Origin: Anaerolineae bacterium
Lineage (GTDB): Bacteria > Chloroflexota > Anaerolineae > JAAEKA01
Assembly (NCBI GenBank): GCA_049299095.1
Contig: JBAQWV010000143.1
Coordinates: 25,000-88,999 of the forward strand
Reading direction: 5' to 3'
Length of the DNA: 64,000 nt
In this document: positions 1 to 11,135 of the stretch, one piece after another
Position numbering within the stretch: position 1 is the stretch's first letter
Layout of the letters: the number at the start of each line of letters is the position of its first letter
The notes under the pieces: model-generated
What the model was told of the DNA's origin: nothing
The model's input: the letters and a program-made list of their open reading frames with translations, nothing else
Databases searched by the model: none
Position numbers and translations under genes: made by a program

Positions 1-2
1 TG

Positions 3-716
3 GCGGAGCTGGCCTTAGCCGAGCGGCAGCAACTCGGCGGCGACCTGGATCGCCTGCTGGTGGCGCTGGACGATGGCCCGCTGCTGCTGTGGATGCCGCA
101 ACGCTTGACCGACGTGCAGCAGGAGCGCCGCGTTGAAGAGTTTTCCCGCCCGCTGCGTGAGCTGCGCCAGGTGCAAGCTGTGCCGTTGGGCTATATTGAC
201 CGGCCCCGCAGCGCCAATATCCTGCGCCTGCTGCAACTGGCCGATCTGGCGCTGGAGGAGATTACCACACAGGTGTTGCGCAGCAACCGTTACCGCGGCC
301 TGTCGGACCGTCTGCTGTTCAATCGGTTGCTCGGCCCCGGCCAGCGCAGCAGCCTGTTCGCGGCTACGTCAGAGATCAACCAGACCTATGCCAAAGAGGG
401 CAACCGCATCTGCTTCTGCTATCTGAACGTGGCCGCGCCGGATGCTACGCAGCCGCGCGTCGTGCGCGTGGAAGTGCCTGACTGGGCCGCGCGCGACGAA
501 GACCGGCTCGACACGGCGCTGGCAGCGGTGTGGCAGGATGCGCGCCTGACCGGCTATCCCTATGTGCTGGCGCGCGCGCATGAGCTGGCCGTGGTCAGTC
601 GCCACGAGCGCGCCGCACTGGAGCAGATGATGCAGATCGAGATGATGCGCCAGGGCTTGACAGGCGATATTTCCGCCAAGCAACAGAACAAGAACGATGT
701 CAGTGGACGCCGCTGA
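3..716 (+). CDS. Hypothetical protein, 5'-truncated by window edge; first gene of a co-directional three-gene cassette ending in a HerA-like ATPase
   Basis: The frame of ORF 60..716 stays open back to nt 3 with no stop (AELALAERQQLGGDLDRLL...). An 8-nt gap separates it from the next gene. No recognisable motif; role as a NurA-like partner is speculation. Confidence 0.4.
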   Translation, partial: AELALAERQQLGGDLDRLLVALDDGPLLLWMPQRLTDVQQERRVEEFSRPLRELRQVQAVPLGYIDRPRSANILRLLQLADLALEEITTQVLRSNRYRGLSDRLLFNRLLGPGQRSSLFAATSEINQTYAKEGNRICFCYLNVAAPDATQPRVVRVEVPDWAARDEDRLDTALAAVWQDARLTGYPYVLARAHELAVVSRHERAALEQMMQIEMMRQGLTGDISAKQQNKNDVSGRR

Positions 717-724
717 GGTGAAGC

Positions 725-1327
725 ATGGAAACAAGCGTTGAACCAACTCAACTGGGCCGTGTACTGCGTTCGGCCACAGCCAGCTTTACGGTGGGCTGCC
801 GCACGTCGGAGGCCGGTGTGCCACGCTTTGGCGCACTGGTGCGCGTCGAAGCGCCCAACCGCGGCGCAATTTATGGCTTGATCTACGATGTGCGCGTGGA
901 TGATGACCCCTTTGTGCGGCAATTGCTGGCCGCGGGCGATCTGACGCCGGAGTACGTCGAGGATCAACGCGCACGGCGGCAAGTGCCGGTCGAGGTGAAT
1001 GTCGTGGTGGTGGGCGGCCAGGACGCCGCGGGCCGCATCTTTCGCTATCTGCCGCCGCAGCCCCCCGCCACGCTGAGCTGGGTGACGCTGGCTGCGACGG
1101 ACGAGATCAAGGCTTTTGGCGCGCGGCTGGACTTTCTGCCCACACTGCTGAACGCCTTTGAAGCACCGGGCGACGAACTGGCCCCGGCCGCGTTGCGGCA
1201 AATGGCCGCGGCGCAGGGGGATGCGGAGGAAGCACAACGCTATTTGGTGGCCGCGGGCCGCGAGTTGGCGCGCCTGCTTAGCCGCGACCCTGCGCGCCTG
1301 AACGCGATCCTGCAACGGCTGCGGTGA
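725..1327 (+). CDS. Hypothetical small protein (200 aa) with a possible HAS-barrel-like N-terminal beta segment
   Basis: ATG at 725 preceded by GAGGTGA RBS. The segment LGRVLRSATASFTVGC...FGALVRVEA...AIYGLIYDV resembles the N-terminal barrel of the downstream ATPase (LGMVVAGSLSKGLDV...GSYVVVRG). Sits 25 nt upstream of the HerA-like gene. Confidence 0.4.
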   Translation: METSVEPTQLGRVLRSATASFTVGCRTSEAGVPRFGALVRVEAPNRGAIYGLIYDVRVDDDPFVRQLLAAGDLTPEYVEDQRARRQVPVEVNVVVVGGQDAAGRIFRYLPPQPPATLSWVTLAATDEIKAFGARLDFLPTLLNAFEAPGDELAPAALRQMAAAQGDAEEAQRYLVAAGRELARLLSRDPARLNAILQRLR

Positions 1328-1352
1328 GGAAAAATCAAAGTGGAGACCCGCC

Positions 1353-3140
1353 ATGAATGATCTGAACGCTACGCCTCTTAGTACAGATGCAGAATTCGAT
1401 GCGTTGCCCAGCGCCAGCCAGGCGCGCGGCCTTGACCCCGACACAGCCCGCTATCCCCTGGGCATGGTCGTGGCCGGTTCACTCTCCAAAGGGCTGGATG
1501 TGCGCCTCGCCCGCGAGATCAACACCGAAGATCAGGCTGTGGGCAGCTACGTGGTGGTGCGCGGCGCGGGCAAGCGCTTTTTCAGCATGATTACCGATGT
1601 GCTGCTGGGTGCGGCCAGTGACGAGGTCACGCTAAACCCGCCTGACCTGTCCGATCCCTTCCTACGCGAGATTCACCAGGGTACCAGCACTTTTGGCCTG
1701 CTGCACCTTAGCCCCATGCTGACGCTGGATGCCGAGGCGGGGGGCGAGCCGCAGCCGGTGAAGACCGTGCCGGGGCACTTCAGCCCGGTGCGCGCGGCCA
1801 GTCAAGCGGAGGTAAGCGAGGTATTCGGCGAGGAAGGCCACGACGCGGCGCGCAAAACCCACTTCTTTCATGTGGGCAATCCGCTGGACATGGCTGATGT
1901 CAAGGTGACGCTCAGCCTGGAGCGGCTGGTGGAGCGCTCATCCGGCGTGTTTGGCAAAAGCGGAACCGGCAAGACCTTCCTGAGCCGCCTGCTGCTGGCC
2001 GGCATTATTCGCGAGCGCGTGGCCGTGAACCTGATCTTTGACATGCACAATGAATATGGCTGGGAGGGTAGCAGCGAAGGCGTCACCAGCAAGGTGAAGG
2101 GGTTGAAGCAGATTTTCCCCGACGGCCGCGTCAGCATCTTCACGCTGGACGACGAATCGAGCCGACGCCGCGGCTCTAATCCCGACTATACCGTCACCAT
2201 CGGTCTCGATCAGGTGGAGCCGGACGATGTGGAGATGTTGCAGGGCATCCTCAACCTGAGCGAGCCGCAGTTGGGCGCGATCTTCGCCCTGCACCGCTAT
2301 CTGCGCCGCGACTGGCTGGCGAACTTCCTCGACGACACCTGGTTGGACAACCAGCAAGCCTTCGATCCTGACACCGGCAAAGAAAAATCGGGCTTGCAGG
2401 TGCTGGCCGAGGAGACGGGCCAGCCCTTCCAGACGCTGGCCGCGCTGCGCCGCCGGCTGCTGCAATTTGAGCGCTACGGCTTCCTCAAGCCGCACGCCGT
2501 GGACGATTCGGTGGAGCGCCTGCTGCGCTATCTGGACGCGGGCACCAACGTAGTGCTGGAGTTTGGCCGCTACGGCAACAGCCTGGACGCCTATATTTTT
2601 GTGGCGAATTTCCTTACGCGGCGGCTGCATCAAAAGTACGTAGAGAAGAAGGAGAACGCCTTCGGCAACAAGGCCGAGGAGCCTAAGCCGCTGGTGATTA
2701 CCATCGAGGAGGCGCACAAGTTCCTGGACCCGGCGATTGCCGGCCACACGATCTTCGGCACAATTGCGCGCGAGCTGCGCAAGTACAACGTCACGCTATT
2801 CATCGTGGATCAACGCCCCAGCCAGATTGACCCTGAGGTGATGAGCCAGATCGGCACGCGCGTCACTGCGCTGCTGGACGAGGAGAACGACATCCGCGCG
2901 GTGCTGATGGGGGTGAGCGGAGCAGCCGGGCTGAAGGAGGTGCTGGCGCGGCTGGACACGCGGCAACAGGCGTTGATCCTGGGCCACGCCGTGCCGATGC
3001 CCGTGGTGGTGCAGACGCGTTCCTACGATCTGACCTTCTACAAGGCGATGGGCCATGTGGACGATGCCGAGTTGCCCGCGCGGCTGGCTGAAAACGTCAT
3101 GAAGATGCGTGGCGAGGAAGGCTTCGAGGGCTTCGATTAA
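1353..3140 (+). CDS. HerA/FtsK-class (DUF87-type) P-loop ATPase with N-terminal HAS-barrel
   Basis: Walker A FGKSGTGKTFLSRLL. HerA-type EEAH-containing Walker B region PLVITIEEAHKFL. Arg-finger/sensor block RKYNVTLFIVDQRPSQIDPEV typical of HerA/VirB4/FtsK. N-terminal barrel-like region. GGAG RBS 8 nt upstream of ATG 1353. TAA stop at 3138-3140. Confidence 0.65.
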   Translation: MNDLNATPLSTDAEFDALPSASQARGLDPDTARYPLGMVVAGSLSKGLDVRLAREINTEDQAVGSYVVVRGAGKRFFSMITDVLLGAASDEVTLNPPDLSDPFLREIHQGTSTFGLLHLSPMLTLDAEAGGEPQPVKTVPGHFSPVRAASQAEVSEVFGEEGHDAARKTHFFHVGNPLDMADVKVTLSLERLVERSSGVFGKSGTGKTFLSRLLLAGIIRERVAVNLIFDMHNEYGWEGSSEGVTSKVKGLKQIFPDGRVSIFTLDDESSRRRGSNPDYTVTIGLDQVEPDDVEMLQGILNLSEPQLGAIFALHRYLRRDWLANFLDDTWLDNQQAFDPDTGKEKSGLQVLAEETGQPFQTLAALRRRLLQFERYGFLKPHAVDDSVERLLRYLDAGTNVVLEFGRYGNSLDAYIFVANFLTRRLHQKYVEKKENAFGNKAEEPKPLVITIEEAHKFLDPAIAGHTIFGTIARELRKYNVTLFIVDQRPSQIDPEVMSQIGTRVTALLDEENDIRAVLMGVSGAAGLKEVLARLDTRQQALILGHAVPMPVVVQTRSYDLTFYKAMGHVDDAELPARLAENVMKMRGEEGFEGFD

Positions 3141-3282
3141 ACCAGTTTGGGGGTATTTGAAAAGCCATAATCAGTGGTTCGACAGCGTACAGCGCCACCG
3201 ATGGTAGCTTGCACGCTGCGGGCTGTCAAGTCGCGCAGGCTGTGAACATTTGTCCGCGCTGCGGCGTGCAATGCAATGAACC

Positions 3283-3314
3283 TGCCCGCGCGGGCAAATG
3301 TCGTTTTGTTTTGC
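3283..3314 (+). terminator. Putative intrinsic terminator after the HerA-like cassette
   Basis: GC palindrome tgcccgcgcgggca followed by the T-rich tract aatgtcgttttgttttg. Confidence 0.35.
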
Positions 3315-3340: not shown

Positions 3341-5272
3341 ATGACCACTGATCATAACAAACGTTTATTGTATCTGTTCCTCGCCATCGCTCTGGTCGCA
3401 CTGACGGCGCTGACCGGCTGGGCTGGCTATAGGTTGTTCAGCCGTGCGCTGGGACCGGCCGTCACCACCACCCCATCCCCTGCGGTGGTGACGGTGATCG
3501 TGGTCGCCACCCCCACCCAGCCGATCCCCTCTCCCACGCCGACACCCCTCTCGACCGTCACCACCATTGCCACCATGCCAACGGTCGCAACCGTGACGGC
3601 GTCCACACCGACTGCCGCGTTGAGCGTGATCGTCACGGCCGATCTGGCGAATCTGCGCAGCGCACCGGACATTGGTGCGCCAGTGCTGGGGGCCGCGCCC
3701 AAAGGCACACTCTTGCAGCCGCAAGGCCGTACGGCTGACAACCAATGGCTGCAGGTGTGCTGTGTCTCCAATCAGTGGGGCTGGATCACCAACCATTCCG
3801 ACCTGGTAACGTTGAATTTCCAGCCCGGCCTGCTGCCGGTGGTGCAATTCCCCACACCCGCGCCACAGCCACAGCCGACCCATACGCCCCCGCCTACGTG
3901 GACGCCCGCGCCACAGCCGACCCGCACGCCCTTGCCTACGTGGACGCCCGCGCCGCAGCCGACCCGCACGCCCCTGCCCACGTGGACGCCCGTGCCGCCC
4001 GCGGCCACAGCCACTTCCACACCGCCCACCGACTTCTGGCGAGGCGAGTACTTCAACAACCTCACGCTGCAAGGTCCACCGGTGTTGACACGACACGACG
4101 CGGCCCTCACTTTTAGCTGGGGAACAGGCAGCCCCGCGCCCGGCGTGGTCTCCGCGGATAACTTCAGCGCGCGCTGGACGCGCTGGCTGGTCATGCCGCG
4201 CAGCGATACCGTGCGCTTCGCAGTACGCGTAGACGATGGCGTGCGCATCAAGCTGGATGGCGCGCTGATCCTCGATGCCTGGCGCGACAGCGCACAGGCT
4301 GAATACGCGGTGGAACGACCAGTGTCAGCCGGCTCGCATCTCGTGGAGGTAGAGTATTACGAGCGCAACGGGCAGGCCGAGATCAATTTCGGCTGGATGC
4401 CGGTCGCGCCATCCCCAACAGCCAGCAGCACCCCCACGACGACCGCGACCGCTACGCGCACGCCAACGTCCTCCCCCACCGGCACACGCACGCCAACGGC
4501 GACGCCGACGACCACAGTCACCGGCAGCCCCACGTCAACAGCGACGCCGACGCCGACCGTGACGACAATGCCTACTATCGTTGTGCCGCCGTCGGAACCA
4601 ACCGCCACGCCCACCGCCACCAACACGCCAGCCACCACGGCTACGAGCACATCAACGGCTACCACTGCTGCCACAGCCACGAGTACGTCAACACCGACGT
4701 TTACGGCTACCAGCACAGCGACTGCCACAGCGACGGCCACGCGCACACCAACGCCCACACCGCTCACTGCGACCCCGACGGCCACATCCGCGCCGCCCAC
4801 CGCCACGCCCTCTGCCACCAGTGAACCGGCAGCGACGCCCACACCCACGATCACACCATTGCCACCCACCCCGACCGCCACGGCGACGCCTGCGTTGCAG
4901 CCGTCGTTGGTGATCTCACCGACCACCGGCTGGGCGGGCACAGTGGTGCAGGTGACGGGCGCCAACTGGCTGCCGAATGACCGGGTGACACTCACAGTCA
5001 CACAGCCGCGCAGCCGCGGGCTGGAGTTTGCGCGCGCGCGCCTCCGCGTGCGTACCGACCGACAGGGCCGCTTCACCGCCACCCTGACCATGCCGCCGCA
5101 AGTGGCGCAGCCCGGTGCCACCGCAGTATGGATCGTCGGCACGGGCAGCCGCAGCACGCGCGCCACCGCAGTCTTTACGTTGACGCCGCCCTCGGATGCA
5201 ACGCCGGTCGGCGCGCCGACGGTGATCACCCCGGCCACGGACAGCACACCACCGCCGGACAGCAACCCATAG
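3341..5272 (+). CDS. Secreted or membrane-anchored protein with SH3b-like and PA14 domains and long Pro/Thr-rich linkers
   Basis: Start trimmed to the in-frame ATG at 3341 (MTTDHNKRLLYLFLAIALVALTAL, signal/TM). SH3b-like segment LANLRSAPDIGAPVLGAAPKGTLLQP. PA14-like block FWRGEYFNNLTLQGPP...DDGVRIKLDG...VEVEYYERNGQAEINFGW. Extensive T/P/A-rich low-complexity regions. Confidence 0.55.
   Translation: MTTDHNKRLLYLFLAIALVALTALTGWAGYRLFSRALGPAVTTTPSPAVVTVIVVATPTQPIPSPTPTPLSTVTTIATMPTVATVTASTPTAALSVIVTADLANLRSAPDIGAPVLGAAPKGTLLQPQGRTADNQWLQVCCVSNQWGWITNHSDLVTLNFQPGLLPVVQFPTPAPQPQPTHTPPPTWTPAPQPTRTPLPTWTPAPQPTRTPLPTWTPVPPAATATSTPPTDFWRGEYFNNLTLQGPPVLTRHDAALTFSWGTGSPAPGVVSADNFSARWTRWLVMPRSDTVRFAVRVDDGVRIKLDGALILDAWRDSAQAEYAVERPVSAGSHLVEVEYYERNGQAEINFGWMPVAPSPTASSTPTTTATATRTPTSSPTGTRTPTATPTTTVTGSPTSTATPTPTVTTMPTIVVPPSEPTATPTATNTPATTATSTSTATTAATATSTSTPTFTATSTATATATATRTPTPTPLTATPTATSAPPTATPSATSEPAATPTPTITPLPPTPTATATPALQPSLVISPTTGWAGTVVQVTGANWLPNDRVTLTVTQPRSRGLEFARARLRVRTDRQGRFTATLTMPPQVAQPGATAVWIVGTGSRSTRATAVFTLTPPSDATPVGAPTVITPATDSTPPPDSNP
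3869..3994 (+). repeat. Three tandem copies of a 42-nt coding repeat (PQPT-TPLPTWTPA) inside the PA14 protein gene
   Basis: Near-identical 42-nt units ccacagccgacccgcacgcccttgcctacgtggacgcccgcg at 3869-3910, 3911-3952 and 3953-3994. Confidence 0.8.
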
Positions 5273-6509: not shown

Positions 6510-7634
6510 ATGAGCAATGACATCATTCAGGCGCAATACGACACGCTAAACGCAGTGGCGCGGCGCTTCGGCGACCAGGCGGAGGCGAGCAGCCAGATGC
6601 TGGCTGGGGTGCGTCGCGCCATGCAGCCACTGCAAGCCGGTGCGTGGCAGGGTCGCGGCTCCACAGCGTTTTTCAACGAAATGACTGGTGAGTTGTTGCC
6701 CGCGTTGAATCGCCTCGTAGCCGCGCTGCAACAGGCACAAACCGTTACTACTGATATTGCCCGTCTCGTGCGCGCAGCCGAGGAAGAGGCTGCACAGCCC
6801 TTCCGGGGTGGCGAGAACGCAGGCAGCGATGCCGGAACCGCAGCAGGCGCTGACACGGCGCCGATACAAACGCTGCTGCCAACACCGCTGCCGACCAACC
6901 AGATCTTTGCCGATTCCTACATGGATGGTCTGGTGGGTTTGCAAGTACAGGGAGCCAACACCGCCCAACTGAACAGCGCGATGGAGACGCTGGCTGGCAC
7001 CCCCACGCCCGAGCAGGTAAACCAGGCGCTGGATCAGATCGCCCAGGCGCGCGGCGTGCCGCGTGCCGAGATCGAGGCGCAATACCAGCGTTACCTAGCC
7101 CTGCGCGACGAAGCTGCGCGCATCGCCGCGGCCAAGGGCATGGATCAGGTTCCCGCGGCCAGCCAGTTCCTGCACGATGACTTCATGGGCAGTACCACAC
7201 AACTGCGCTACGGCAAGGTCGTGGGCGACGCGCTGGGCATTGACCCGGTGTTCGGTGCGCTACTCAACCCCACTGGCGGGCTGGTCGGCCCCGGCAACGC
7301 GGCCGTTGACCTGGGCGATAGCGCACTGGGTTATCACGGCGTGGTGCATGACGCCGCCGGCTACCTCTACAACTACCACAACATGGGACCAGGCTATGAC
7401 TATCTGGGCCTGGAAGGGCGCGATACCAGCAGTCCATTGACCGGCCAGCAGGCTGGCATCCAGTATTGGACAAACAACATCAACGCGGGCTTTGTGGAAT
7501 CAACCCTGTCGAATACCGGCGGCACGTTGCTCGGTGTAGCGGAAGATGTAAAAACCGGCGTCACCCAAACAATAGACGCTATCAGTGATGGCGTTGAGAG
7601 CGTCCGTGACTGGTTTGGCGATTTATTTGACTGA
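6510..7634 (+). CDS. WXG100/LXG-like N-terminal domain fused to a C-terminal domain of unknown function (polymorphic toxin-like)
   Basis: First ~100 aa is a helical WXG100-type domain with W-x-G (LQAGAWQGRGSTAFFNEM). Followed by an A/G/T/P-rich linker and a ~250-aa C-terminal domain with no recognisable motif. ATG 6510, TGA 7632-7634. Confidence 0.55.
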   Translation: MSNDIIQAQYDTLNAVARRFGDQAEASSQMLAGVRRAMQPLQAGAWQGRGSTAFFNEMTGELLPALNRLVAALQQAQTVTTDIARLVRAAEEEAAQPFRGGENAGSDAGTAAGADTAPIQTLLPTPLPTNQIFADSYMDGLVGLQVQGANTAQLNSAMETLAGTPTPEQVNQALDQIAQARGVPRAEIEAQYQRYLALRDEAARIAAAKGMDQVPAASQFLHDDFMGSTTQLRYGKVVGDALGIDPVFGALLNPTGGLVGPGNAAVDLGDSALGYHGVVHDAAGYLYNYHNMGPGYDYLGLEGRDTSSPLTGQQAGIQYWTNNINAGFVESTLSNTGGTLLGVAEDVKTGVTQTIDAISDGVESVRDWFGDLFD

Positions 7635-7644
7635 GAGGTGTTGC

Positions 7645-8409
7645 ATGACGATTCCCTGTGCCATTTCATACCCTGTCACCCTCTCACCGGCACAACTGGC
7701 TTACCTGCTTTCGCTCACTGGTATTCAAGATTTGGTGGGCCTGGCCGATGAAGGCCTCTTTCCCAGAAACGGCGACCATTGGGAACGGCTTTTTCTGCAC
7801 GGCCGCGCCGAATTGGAGCGTGACCAGTGGTTGTATCAACCGCCCAACAGTGCCCGCACAGCCATCAATCAGGAGTTGCTGACAGTAGTGACCACGATGG
7901 CTGCGCCGGACGCAGTGCTGGTGACCACACTCAACCGTCCTGGCCTGCCCAGCCAAAGCGTCACCCATTATATTTCAACCTTTGTCGTGGAAGCGTGCTA
8001 CGATGGCCTGTACTACCGGATGGCTGCCTTGTCATCACCGGAAGTAATGCTGATGCGGCTGGCAAGCACCTTGGGTCTGCCCTCACAGCAGCCCGCGCTG
8101 GACGAATTCGTGCTGTCCAATGAGAGTGCGCGGCAGGCTGTGGCCGATCCGGCGCCGGAACACCTGGCCCGGCTGGGCGTGCCCAGCAGCAGTATACAGC
8201 TTTTCGCCCGCGCCCTCGATGCGGGTCGGCGTGCCAAGGTGCAGGTGATGCGACTGCGTTACGGCCAGGTGCAGGCAGTTCACCGCGTGCGCGCCCTGTT
8301 CGCCAGTGAATCCTCGGCCTGGCTGGCTTTGCCTGCTGATGGCGCGCGCGTACGCATGGTGCCCGCGTACGCGGGCGGTCTGGCCGAACAGGTGCAAGCC
8401 TTGCTATAA
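7645..8409 (+). CDS. Hypothetical protein immediately downstream of the WXG-toxin gene (candidate immunity protein)
   Basis: In-frame ATG at 7645, 10 nt after the toxin stop (ORF track start 7585 overlaps the upstream gene). No recognisable motif. Position matches the toxin-immunity pair convention. Confidence 0.4.
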   Translation: MTIPCAISYPVTLSPAQLAYLLSLTGIQDLVGLADEGLFPRNGDHWERLFLHGRAELERDQWLYQPPNSARTAINQELLTVVTTMAAPDAVLVTTLNRPGLPSQSVTHYISTFVVEACYDGLYYRMAALSSPEVMLMRLASTLGLPSQQPALDEFVLSNESARQAVADPAPEHLARLGVPSSSIQLFARALDAGRRAKVQVMRLRYGQVQAVHRVRALFASESSAWLALPADGARVRMVPAYAGGLAEQVQALL

Positions 8410-8993: not shown

Positions 8994-11135
8994 ATGACTA
9001 AGAGGATATTAGCCGGTTTGGGCGCGCTGTTTGTGCTGTTCTTTGTGGCCGCGTTCGCGGTTTCCGCACAAGCGCCTGTTTCTCCGCAAGTAATTAGCAC
9101 CGTTGCGCATCCGGGGGCCGAAGGGCTGGGGTTGGATGTTTATTTTGTCGTGACAGACGGCGATGGGCAACCAGTACTGGATGCCAACCTGGAAGAAGCC
9201 ACGATCCAGGTCGTCGGCAGCGCCAGCGCGCCGATTCCGGCCACCATTAGCACCCCACAAAGCACCATCTATGTCGTCCTGCTGCTCGACGTCAGCGGCA
9301 GTATGCAGAATATTATCGGTCAGGTGCGCGCGGCCGCGCTGTCTGCACTACAAACATTACCCGCCAATGCCCGCGTGTCGGTCATCGCCTTTAGCGACCA
9401 AATCAGTGTCGTCACCGACTTTACCGGGGACTTTATCACCGTACAACAGCGAATTCAGCAGATCGGCGTTGCTCCTGGCGCGCCGACCTGCCTGTACGAT
9501 GCCGTGTGGGACGTAATTGATCGTCTGGACATTGCCGCAACGGAGCCACAAGACCGCCGCGCGCTGATCCTTTTCACCGATGGCCGCGACGAAAAGGGCA
9601 ACGGGCAAGCATGCAGTATTCACACGTTGCAAGATGTCGTTCAAAAGGCACAACGCCAGCCCGCCACACCCATTCATACCATCGGCTTGTGCGGTGCGAC
9701 ATGCGCCAACCTGAACGTCACAGAATTGAGCGAAATCGCCAGCGCCACGCGCGGTTTTGCTGTAACTGGTGGGCAGACTGACCTGGAAGATATGTTCCAG
9801 GCGATCATGGACGGACTGAACGCCCAACTGGTCGCGCGGGCCGTGGTGTATCCCCGGCAGGGTACGGGGCAGGCTGTGCTGGCCGTACGGCCACACGATC
9901 TGAATGCCTTTGTGACCACGATGTTCAACTTTCGTTCTGACAAGGATTATGCCGAGCCACTGCCGCCGGTGGCTGTGCGCGTGACAGAACTGACCTTCCT
10001 GCCTGACAACAATACCTATCAGGTGGGTCTGGGCATCGGCAATCCGCAATCAGCAGACCGTCTGATCGTGAGTATTGAGGAAACCGAAGGCGGCAAGACG
10101 GTACTCAAGGGTTTGGAGATCAACGTCGAAGGCCGCGCTGCACTGCAAACAGACTTGCCCGCGGCCAACCTGACCGCGGGCCGTAAATACACCATCAAAT
10201 TTCAGGCCGTGGATGTCGCAAACAACTTCCTTACACTTCCTGAAGGCGCCGACGCCTGTTCCGATGACCCGACCGTCCTCGGCTGTAAAGAGTTCACACA
10301 CGAGCCGCCCGTTGCCCCCGGCTGCGAATTCGCGGTTCAGTCCGTTGCTTCGGACTACACCAATCAAGTACTGCGCTTCGATTTGGTGATGCCCAAACAG
10401 TGCAACGATGTGTTCTATCAGGGGGTGATCGTCCAAAAGGACACCGGCCAAAAGGTGCAGGACATCGGCCGCGGCACTTTCTTTGCTGCACAGGGCACCA
10501 ACCAGATCAATATTCCCATGCCTGTGCGGCTGTTACAACTGAAGAAAAAAGACCCTGTGCCGGAATTGGCGATGACCCTCACGCTGGAAACGCGCGAGAG
10601 TAAGCAAACCACGTTGGCCTATGAGTTCGTGCCCGATCGCCGCCCCCCCGTGCCTTTGACGGAATTTTTGCGACGCAATATCATGTTTTTGGTCGGTGGC
10701 CTGGCTATTGTAGTGTTGTACTTTCTATATCACACTTGGCAGTCACAACAGGCAGAAAAGCAGAAACGCGAGCAGGTGCGCCCGCCCATCGAATCCACCA
10801 CCAAGCCTGTTAATTTTGAAACGCCAGCCATGCGCTTGAAGCTACACATTCTATCCACCCCTGATCCCCAAAACCGGCGCGATCTGGTTGTAAGCCAATT
10901 CCCCTTCGTAATTGGCCGCAAGGAAGGCAACCTTATTATCCGGGATCAGAAAGTGTCTGGCAAGCACGCTCAAATCACCATCAACGGCAATGAATTCTTT
11001 ATTGAAGACCTGGGCAGCACCAACCACACCTACCTCGCGGGCAAGCCCCTGGTGCCGCACAGCCCACAGCGCCTGCCCAGCAAGCTGAAAGTGCGCCTCG
11101 GCCCCGACACCGAAATCGAAATCGAAACCATCTAA
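8994..11135 (+). CDS. Membrane protein with extracytoplasmic VWA domain and cytoplasmic C-terminal FHA domain
   Basis: Signal peptide [48 protein letters not shown] ... [13 protein letters not shown]. Single [20 protein letters not shown]-terminal FHA signature [49 protein letters not shown]. Confidence 0.7.

Follow-up and report, generated by a model that had tools for sequence, protein, structure and literature searches.

A nurA–herA locus of an Anaerolineae bacterium with a conserved third gene encoding a stand-alone HAS barrel, probably under SOS control

The closest described system is the NurA–HerA machine of Deinococcus radiodurans (PDB 7F6D and 7WRW), which is encoded by a two-gene operon without a third subunit, and in which HerA hexamers translocate double-stranded DNA towards NurA, bound as a dimer to the HAS-barrel ring, the acidic residues of the barrel meeting the basic motifs of NurA (PMC9960219). 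The archaeal herA-mre11-rad50-nurA operon of Sulfolobus, Pyrococcus and Thermococcus contains no separate HAS-barrel gene. The locus described here opens a stretch of 64,000 nucleotides (nt), hereafter the window, from an Anaerolineae bacterium (GenBank assembly GCA_049299095.1, contig JBAQWV010000143.1, positions 25,000 to 88,999 of the forward strand), and comprises, on a chromosome of the Caldilineales type, a three-gene operon (nurA / stand-alone HAS-barrel gene / herA) from which only the 5′ part of nurA is cut off. It is ordinary as a nurA–herA locus, while its conserved third component and its regulatory handle are noteworthy. The operon is best read not as a novel defence cassette but as a variant of the NurA–HerA end-processing machine that has three components and is probably under SOS control. 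The explanation that best accounts for the whole, namely a damage-induced three-gene NurA–HerA end-processing operon with the barrel protein as third subunit, is given a rough probability of 0.55.

None of the other HerA-type systems (Sir2-HerA, DUF4297-HerA and TdpA/TdpB) has a free-standing barrel protein, and no Sir2, DUF4297 or tdpC-type partner is present in this locus, whose HerA family scores only 46 bits against TdpA. To our knowledge, all solved machines made of HerA and an effector (NurA, Sir2, DUF4297 or TdpB) hold the effector on the HAS-barrel face of the motor, and the N-terminal crown barrels of the F1/V1/FliI type are always fused to the ATPase, whereas the barrel encoded here is made as a polypeptide of its own and carries a helical domain besides. 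The Pyrobaculum nurA-csm6-herA clusters, which lie beside CRISPR arrays, likewise have an extra gene between nurA and herA, encoding the CRISPR-associated Csm6 (PMC12977600), while the extra gene here is a HAS-barrel paralogue without CRISPR context. With an incomplete coverage of the literature, no paper was found on a stand-alone HAS barrel, a three-gene nurA–herA operon or the control of nurA–herA by LexA.

The three co-directional genes on the forward strand are the 3′ part of nurA (3..716; the last 237 codons and the stop, running off the 5′ end of the window), the barrel gene (725..1327; 200 residues) and herA (1353..3140; 595 residues), which are separated by gaps of 8 and 25 nt and have Shine–Dalgarno-like sequences before each start. 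The preliminary description of this DNA, made from the sequence alone, had given the same arrangement and had expected more of the system upstream, and both points hold. A second contig (L094) is 100% identical to window positions 1–2866 and thus gives the DNA that precedes the window in this genome (window position = L094 position − 9801), showing the rest of nurA, a promoter, a palindromic box and an sbcD-family gene. The full nurA has 397 codons and starts 477 nt upstream of the window edge. All three open reading frames (ORFs) are real genes and not chance ORFs, in view of the ratios of nonsynonymous to synonymous substitution rates (dN/dS) of gene 2 and herA, and of the triad being conserved in over 80 loci.

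Gene 1 is a NurA according to Pfam, to the NCBI name of an identical protein and to its fold. The 237-residue fragment matches Pfam PF09376 with 68.9 bits (cut-off 21, E = 6.2e-19, profile positions 95–254 of 254), and this family is present on all full-length NurA relatives examined. A 397-residue protein (P0409), identical over the window fragment, is named ‘DNA double-strand break repair nuclease NurA’ by NCBI, and fold comparison gives the RNase H-like NurA fold, with Piwi and RNase H domains coming next. The earlier statements that this gene has no recognisable motif, and that neither partner of HerA looks like an obvious NurA, are thus replaced. The residues D88 (DGSQ), E156, D184 (DGP) and H353 (RAHELA; many relatives have D instead) show no or almost no variation, where the equivalence to the catalytic D-E-D-H set of solved NurAs is assigned by motif position and not by superposition, and D88 and E156 lie outside the window. 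As the positions in DGSQ, E156, DGP and RA(H/D)ELA are conserved, the encoded enzyme is likely to be an active nuclease. With the NurA profile, no solved NurA is found at E ≤ 1.

The product of gene 2 is a HAS barrel standing alone, a copy of the module by which HerA holds NurA, and ends in a conserved helical tail, as identified from its structure and its family. The AlphaFold2 model (mean predicted local distance difference test score, pLDDT, 86; predicted template modelling score, pTM, 0.81) contains a β-barrel at about residues 9–122, into which a helical hairpin is inserted, and after it a conserved domain of helices at about residues 125–199. All of the 50 best Foldseek matches of this model are HerA chains, and structure comparison relates the protein to the first ~130 residues of HerA, the barrel fold being that of the N-termini of HerA and ATP synthase. 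The window protein itself has no match in Pfam, NCBIfam or PADLOC, and sequence searches of the PDB with the barrel family give nothing significant. Pfam HAS-barrel (PF09378) matches 25 of 51 diverse family members that are 28–47% identical to the window copy (best E = 2.7e-9), and the family member in L087 scores 27.2 bits on it against a cut-off of 25.2. The likeness of the middle gene to a HAS barrel, already suspected in the preliminary description, is thus borne out by the structure and by the Pfam matches of its relatives. The sole profile–profile match between the gene 2 family (positions 34–69) and the cognate HerA family (positions 62–109; 35 columns, P = 0.005) covers equivalent barrel strands and a shared DPF motif. 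A conserved acidic DDDPF loop of gene 2 aligns with the SDPF loop of the cognate HerA, and may be an element contacting NurA. The barrel gene is under purifying selection (dN/dS 0.12–0.24).

Gene 3 belongs to a distinct HerA clade and is not a conjugative ATPase. It encodes a hexameric translocase ATPase of the HerA/FtsK class, which is identified by the Pfam domain DUF87 (PF01935, the HerA central domain; 97 bits against a cut-off of 23.2, E = 2.3e-27), the NCBIfam ranking and solved relatives (8wiv, 4d2i and 9x1l). The Walker A motif GKSGTGKT (1953..1976), the Walker B/catalytic motif EEAH (2706..2717) and the QRP sensor/arginine-finger block (2811..2819) are all present in the sequence, and none of them varies in the HerA alignment (A2), so that the class and motifs assigned at the outset are retained. 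The N-terminal HAS-barrel-like segment claimed for this protein is found by Pfam HAS-barrel at residues 37–91 (1461..1625; E = 4.2e-4), but with 20.8 bits it stays below the gathering cut-off of 25.2; the same family is recorded on the cognate HerA of relatives, without a weakness mark in the L085 orthologue and as weak in others. The top NCBIfam matches are HerA models (HerA_antiphage with 74 bits and HerA_Thermprot with 71.5 bits), the cut-offs of which are 800 each, and the protein is thus a member of neither the repair nor the anti-phage HerA equivalogs curated in NCBIfam. Among solved proteins, the HerA family profile gives 95 bits with the Sir2-linked HerA of Paenibacillus, 88 with Sulfolobus HerA and 76 with Thermococcus HerA, and does not reach D. 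radiodurans HerA at E ≤ 0.001, the D. radiodurans sequences being very distant. The conjugative VirB4/TraC ATPases were rejected, in line with the first reading of this gene, as the VirB4-family models stay far below their cut-offs (TIGR00929, 11.9 bits against 643; NF045975, 20.4 bits against 590). The dN/dS of herA is 0.11–0.18. No database entry identical to the window HerA was found.

Gene 2 has about 970 close homologues, all from Chloroflexota and all labelled ‘hypothetical’, and the barrel family comprises 889 clusters at 50% identity (exhaustive hidden Markov model search, E ≤ 0.001), nearly all of which are about 200 residues long. In a scan of species representatives, relatives occur in 204 genomes, the best 80 of which are all metagenome-assembled genomes of the class Anaerolineae (Caldilineales, Anaerolineales, Thermoflexales and Ardenticatenales); one family member carries a Dehalococcoidia name. 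Linkage was counted in 84 barrel-gene loci, the distance to herA was measured in 65, and sbcD was surveyed in 94. The barrel gene is directly preceded by nurA in 80/80 loci whose contig reaches that far, with a median projected gap of 7 nt and frequent overlap, and is followed by herA in 64 loci, at a distance of no more than 150 nt in 35 of the 65 measured. A 4-nt overlap with herA is seen in two loci (L085 and L089), of which L085 (4976–7600 of a 4.9-Mb contig) has no adjacent nurA and has two DUF4058 fragments split by a DDE transposase upstream.

A second barrel clade (about 218 residues, mostly with a precomputed PF09378 assignment) stands between nurA and herA in contigs bearing Latescibacteria and Gemmatimonadota names, and 14 residues are invariant across both clades and three phyla, including residues of the C-terminal domain that is not part of HerA. 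The order nurA / stand-alone barrel gene / herA recurs in Chloroflexota, Latescibacterota and Gemmatimonadota. Identity levels track taxonomy, and the conservation of HerA is unusually high, at 51–91% identity across orders. Every locus examined has a conserved third gene between nurA and herA, which departs from the definition of the canonical two-gene operon. The preliminary description had named a clear NurA with a conserved housekeeping protein beside it as the marks of a canonical nurA–herA repair locus; the former is present, but gene 2 is not a known housekeeping protein.

In the loci of the Latescibacteria/Gemmatimonadota type, nurA is preceded on the same strand by genes for a STAS and HATPase_c protein, a protein of about 190 residues with a weak winged-helix-type match and a protein of about 250 residues with a weak SH3-like match (L087 3167–5740, L089 3307–5634, L088 24–758), the last of which is homologous among L086, L087 and L088. 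These genes were considered as core members and rejected, since they have no counterpart in the Chloroflexota loci. An apparent fusion of NurA and HAS barrel (P0231, 372 residues; L086 3450–5167) was likewise discarded as a frameshift artefact, as it lies on a long-read contig of 2x coverage in which nurA is split and herA truncated.

The DNA upstream of the window, in L094, contains a near-consensus promoter 61–89 nt before the nurA start codon (ATG at 9324), with the −35 element TTGGCA (9235–9240) and the −10 element TATAAT (9258–9263) separated by a 17-nt spacer. The palindrome CGAATATTTGTTCG (CGAAT-N4-GTTCG; 9274–9287) lies 10 nt downstream of TATAAT, over the start region, and promoter and box together correspond to about −566 to −514 in window numbering. 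TATAAT and CGAA..T.TGTTCG are invariant in 12 loci with diverged flanks, where NurA is only 40–78% identical. The pattern CGAAC-N4-GTTCG, with at least 9 of 10 positions matched, occurs in the 300 nt before nurA in 17 of 78 loci, at 0.67 per kb against 0.035 per kb elsewhere (19-fold), and GAAC-N4-GTTC, with at least 7 of 8 positions matched, occurs there in 37 of the 78, at 1.94 against 0.28 per kb (7-fold), clustered at −25 to −40. Upstream of displaced herA genes the box was found in 1 of 26 cases. Inside the window the LexA-type pattern occurs at chance level only, within coding sequence, and the window has no SOS gene on which the motif could be calibrated. GAAC-N4-GTTC is the LexA operator of Firmicutes and Actinobacteria (PMC4951493), and the same source also mentions variants of the LexA motif for Chloroflexi, from a Dehalococcoides study. 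As the box matches this motif, the palindrome is probably a LexA operator which places the operon under SOS control.

A co-directional gene before nurA in L094 (7889–9139) encodes a 416-residue phosphoesterase of the SbcD/Mre11 family (TIGR00619, 136.9 bits against a cut-off of 77.65), and ends with its own hairpin and T-run, indicating a separate transcription unit. An SbcD-like gene adjoins the triad on the same strand in 14 of the 94 loci surveyed (L031, L062, L003 and L051 among them), either before nurA or just after herA, and in L051 sbcD is followed by an SbcC/Rad50-like ORF with the Walker A motif GDNGAGKSSLLDA. This linkage echoes that of the archaeal herA-mre11-rad50-nurA operon, from which it differs in that sbcD is a separate unit with its own terminator and Rad50/SbcC is usually not adjacent. 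The linked nuclease of the sbcD/mre11 family fits a role in the processing of double-strand breaks. The presumed LexA box also sets the locus apart from Deinococcus, where control is by PprI/DdrO.

In the proposed mechanism, the operon would be transcribed from the TTGGCA-17 nt-TATAAT promoter, and with a LexA operator over its start region the machine would be made upon DNA damage. HerA would form a ring translocase which carries the NurA dimer on the HAS-barrel side at its N-terminus and feeds DNA ends into that dimer, as seen in the solved complexes of archaea and Deinococcus. The barrel protein would most likely be a physical third subunit touching NurA through its barrel, serving either to join NurA to HerA, as an adaptor or collar, or to control when NurA docks, and its conserved C-terminal helical domain would provide a second contact. 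As the barrel gene is fixed beside nurA and often translationally coupled to it, its product most probably binds NurA in the way the HerA barrel does. Given the conserved C-terminal domain and the links of the barrel gene to herA (the 4-nt overlaps and its persistence there in L085), the likelier roles are that of a bridging adaptor or collar and that of a gate on docking. A more specific proposal, put forward only tentatively, at less than even odds, is that of a free-standing ‘crown’ subunit which may take its place beside the HerA ring and the NurA dimer, or between the two, and gate the docking of the nuclease, as part of an SOS-controlled three-component architecture spread over at least three phyla.

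Several observations weigh against the three-gene end-processing operon as read here. HerA is encoded 0.5–4.8 kb from the barrel gene in 24 of the 65 loci measured, and was not found within about 6 kb downstream in several others (L006, L008, L009, L028 and L060 among them), so that the three proteins need not be co-expressed. The GAAC-N4-GTTC box occurs in only 37 of the 78 upstream regions, and LexA binding is predicted from a motif. The window copy of gene 2 falls below every Pfam threshold, and its likeness to the barrel of the cognate HerA is marginal (P = 0.005 in the profile comparison, E = 0.34 with BLASTP). The best structural matches include TdpA/TdpB, the HerA-fold/NurA-fold pair of the tdpABC phosphorothioate cluster, which probably has a defence-type function. 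The physiological role of NurA–HerA is itself disputed between repair and the destruction of foreign DNA (PMC9960219; PMC12977600).

A serious rival to the adaptor, collar or gate, unlikely as it appears, is that the barrel protein acts purely as a decoy or safety catch, an inhibitor or chaperone which would occupy the HerA-binding face of NurA until the DNA-loaded HerA ring displaces it. The protein has the fold of the module on which NurA docks, its gene is linked most tightly to nurA, to which it is probably coupled in translation, and the nurA–barrel pair persists where herA is displaced or not nearby; moreover, D. radiodurans NurA has little activity without HerA, which makes docking a control point (PMC12977600). 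However, the barrel gene overlaps herA in some genomes and stays beside herA without an adjacent nurA in L085, suggesting that its product works with HerA too, and a decoy leaves the conserved C-terminal domain unexplained.

It is improbable that the triad is a defence module which degrades invading linear DNA of phages or plasmids, with NurA as effector, HerA as translocase and the barrel protein as regulator. The bacterial HerA partners Sir2 and DUF4297 form anti-phage systems, T. kodakarensis HerA-NurA degrades both strands and has been proposed by its authors to have an antiviral role (PMC12977600), and TdpA/TdpB are among the structural matches already given. The interval between the barrel gene and herA is also an insertion hot spot in relatives (L003, L008, L018, L032, L034, L044, L046 and L061), where MNT/HepT toxin–antitoxin pairs, insertion sequence elements (IS605 TnpB-type and DDE transposases), an Mrr_cat nuclease and a 1437-residue helicase with DEAD, Helicase_C and MZB domains are found, and GmrSD lies downstream of the triad in L002. 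In one subclade, a pentapeptide-repeat protein of the DNA-mimic type is encoded in this interval directly after the barrel gene.

Against a defence role, PADLOC-DB 2.0.0 has no model that matches the barrel protein or the complete NurA, and its matches to HerA are only partial, with 99–114 bits on models of about 576 positions. The neighbours of the triad are housekeeping genes in the window, in L094 and in L085: downstream in the window there are genes for a PA14/SH3 surface protein, aroD, a WXG100-type protein, a VWA-FHA protein, a monooxygenase, an M3 peptidase and a P-type ATPase; upstream in L094, those for a rhodanese, a prephenate dehydrogenase, an M50 peptidase, an amidohydrolase and sbcD; and in L085, obg, proB, proS, rpsU and ftsH. 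The identity levels follow taxonomy, unlike those of defence genes with fast turnover, the promoter carries a LexA-type box, sbcD is linked, and no modification gene is linked. The housekeeping flanks, the taxonomy-tracking identity and the lack of a PADLOC match favour a chromosomal function in DNA damage, and together with the LexA-type box and the linked sbcD-type gene they speak against the uncharacterised defence module suggested in the preliminary description. Finally, it is hardly credible that gene 2 arose by duplication of the herA 5′ end and is now decaying, or that it is a hitch-hiker with no part in the machine, as might be supposed from its likeness to the first ~130 HerA residues and its position just upstream of herA, since its dN/dS is 0.12–0.24, 14 residues are invariant over three phyla, also in the domain foreign to HerA, the 889 clusters are nearly all of full length, and the position beside nurA is fixed.

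Beyond the herA stop, at a distance of 143 nt, a consensus scan finds a terminator-like hairpin, TGCCCGCGCGGGCA, with a T-rich tail (3283..3312, forward strand), which is weak evidence of a terminator, as the count of such sites in the region is not above that in shuffled sequence. Two antisense ORFs on the reverse strand (560..1444, 294 residues, and 1938..2747, 269 residues) are by-products of a G+C content of about 65% and not genes. Neither Rfam families nor tRNAs were found in the window, and the charge and isoelectric point analysis of the three proteins was uninformative.

The following genes further downstream in the window lie on the forward strand. That at 3341–5272 encodes a probably cell-surface protein of 643 residues with an N-terminal membrane anchor, bacterial SH3 and PA14 domains and very long Pro/Thr-rich low-complexity linkers. 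The gene at 6510–7634 encodes a protein of 374 residues with an N-terminal WXG100 domain (E = 1.5e-9) and a C-terminal part without family match, and is followed by an ORF of 254 residues without family match (7645–8409); the pair might represent a secreted LXG-like toxin and the matching immunity protein. The 713-residue protein encoded at 8994–11135 contains an N-terminal VWA domain, a membrane segment and a C-terminal FHA domain.

The occurrence of a separately encoded barrel fixed beside nurA in hundreds of lineages implies a mode of nuclease assembly or regulation that has not been studied. The LexA-type operator and the sbcD linkage in Chloroflexota offer a testable handle on the dispute between resection and foreign-DNA destruction as the role of NurA–HerA, and about 890 clusters now labelled ‘hypothetical protein’ receive a clean family definition.

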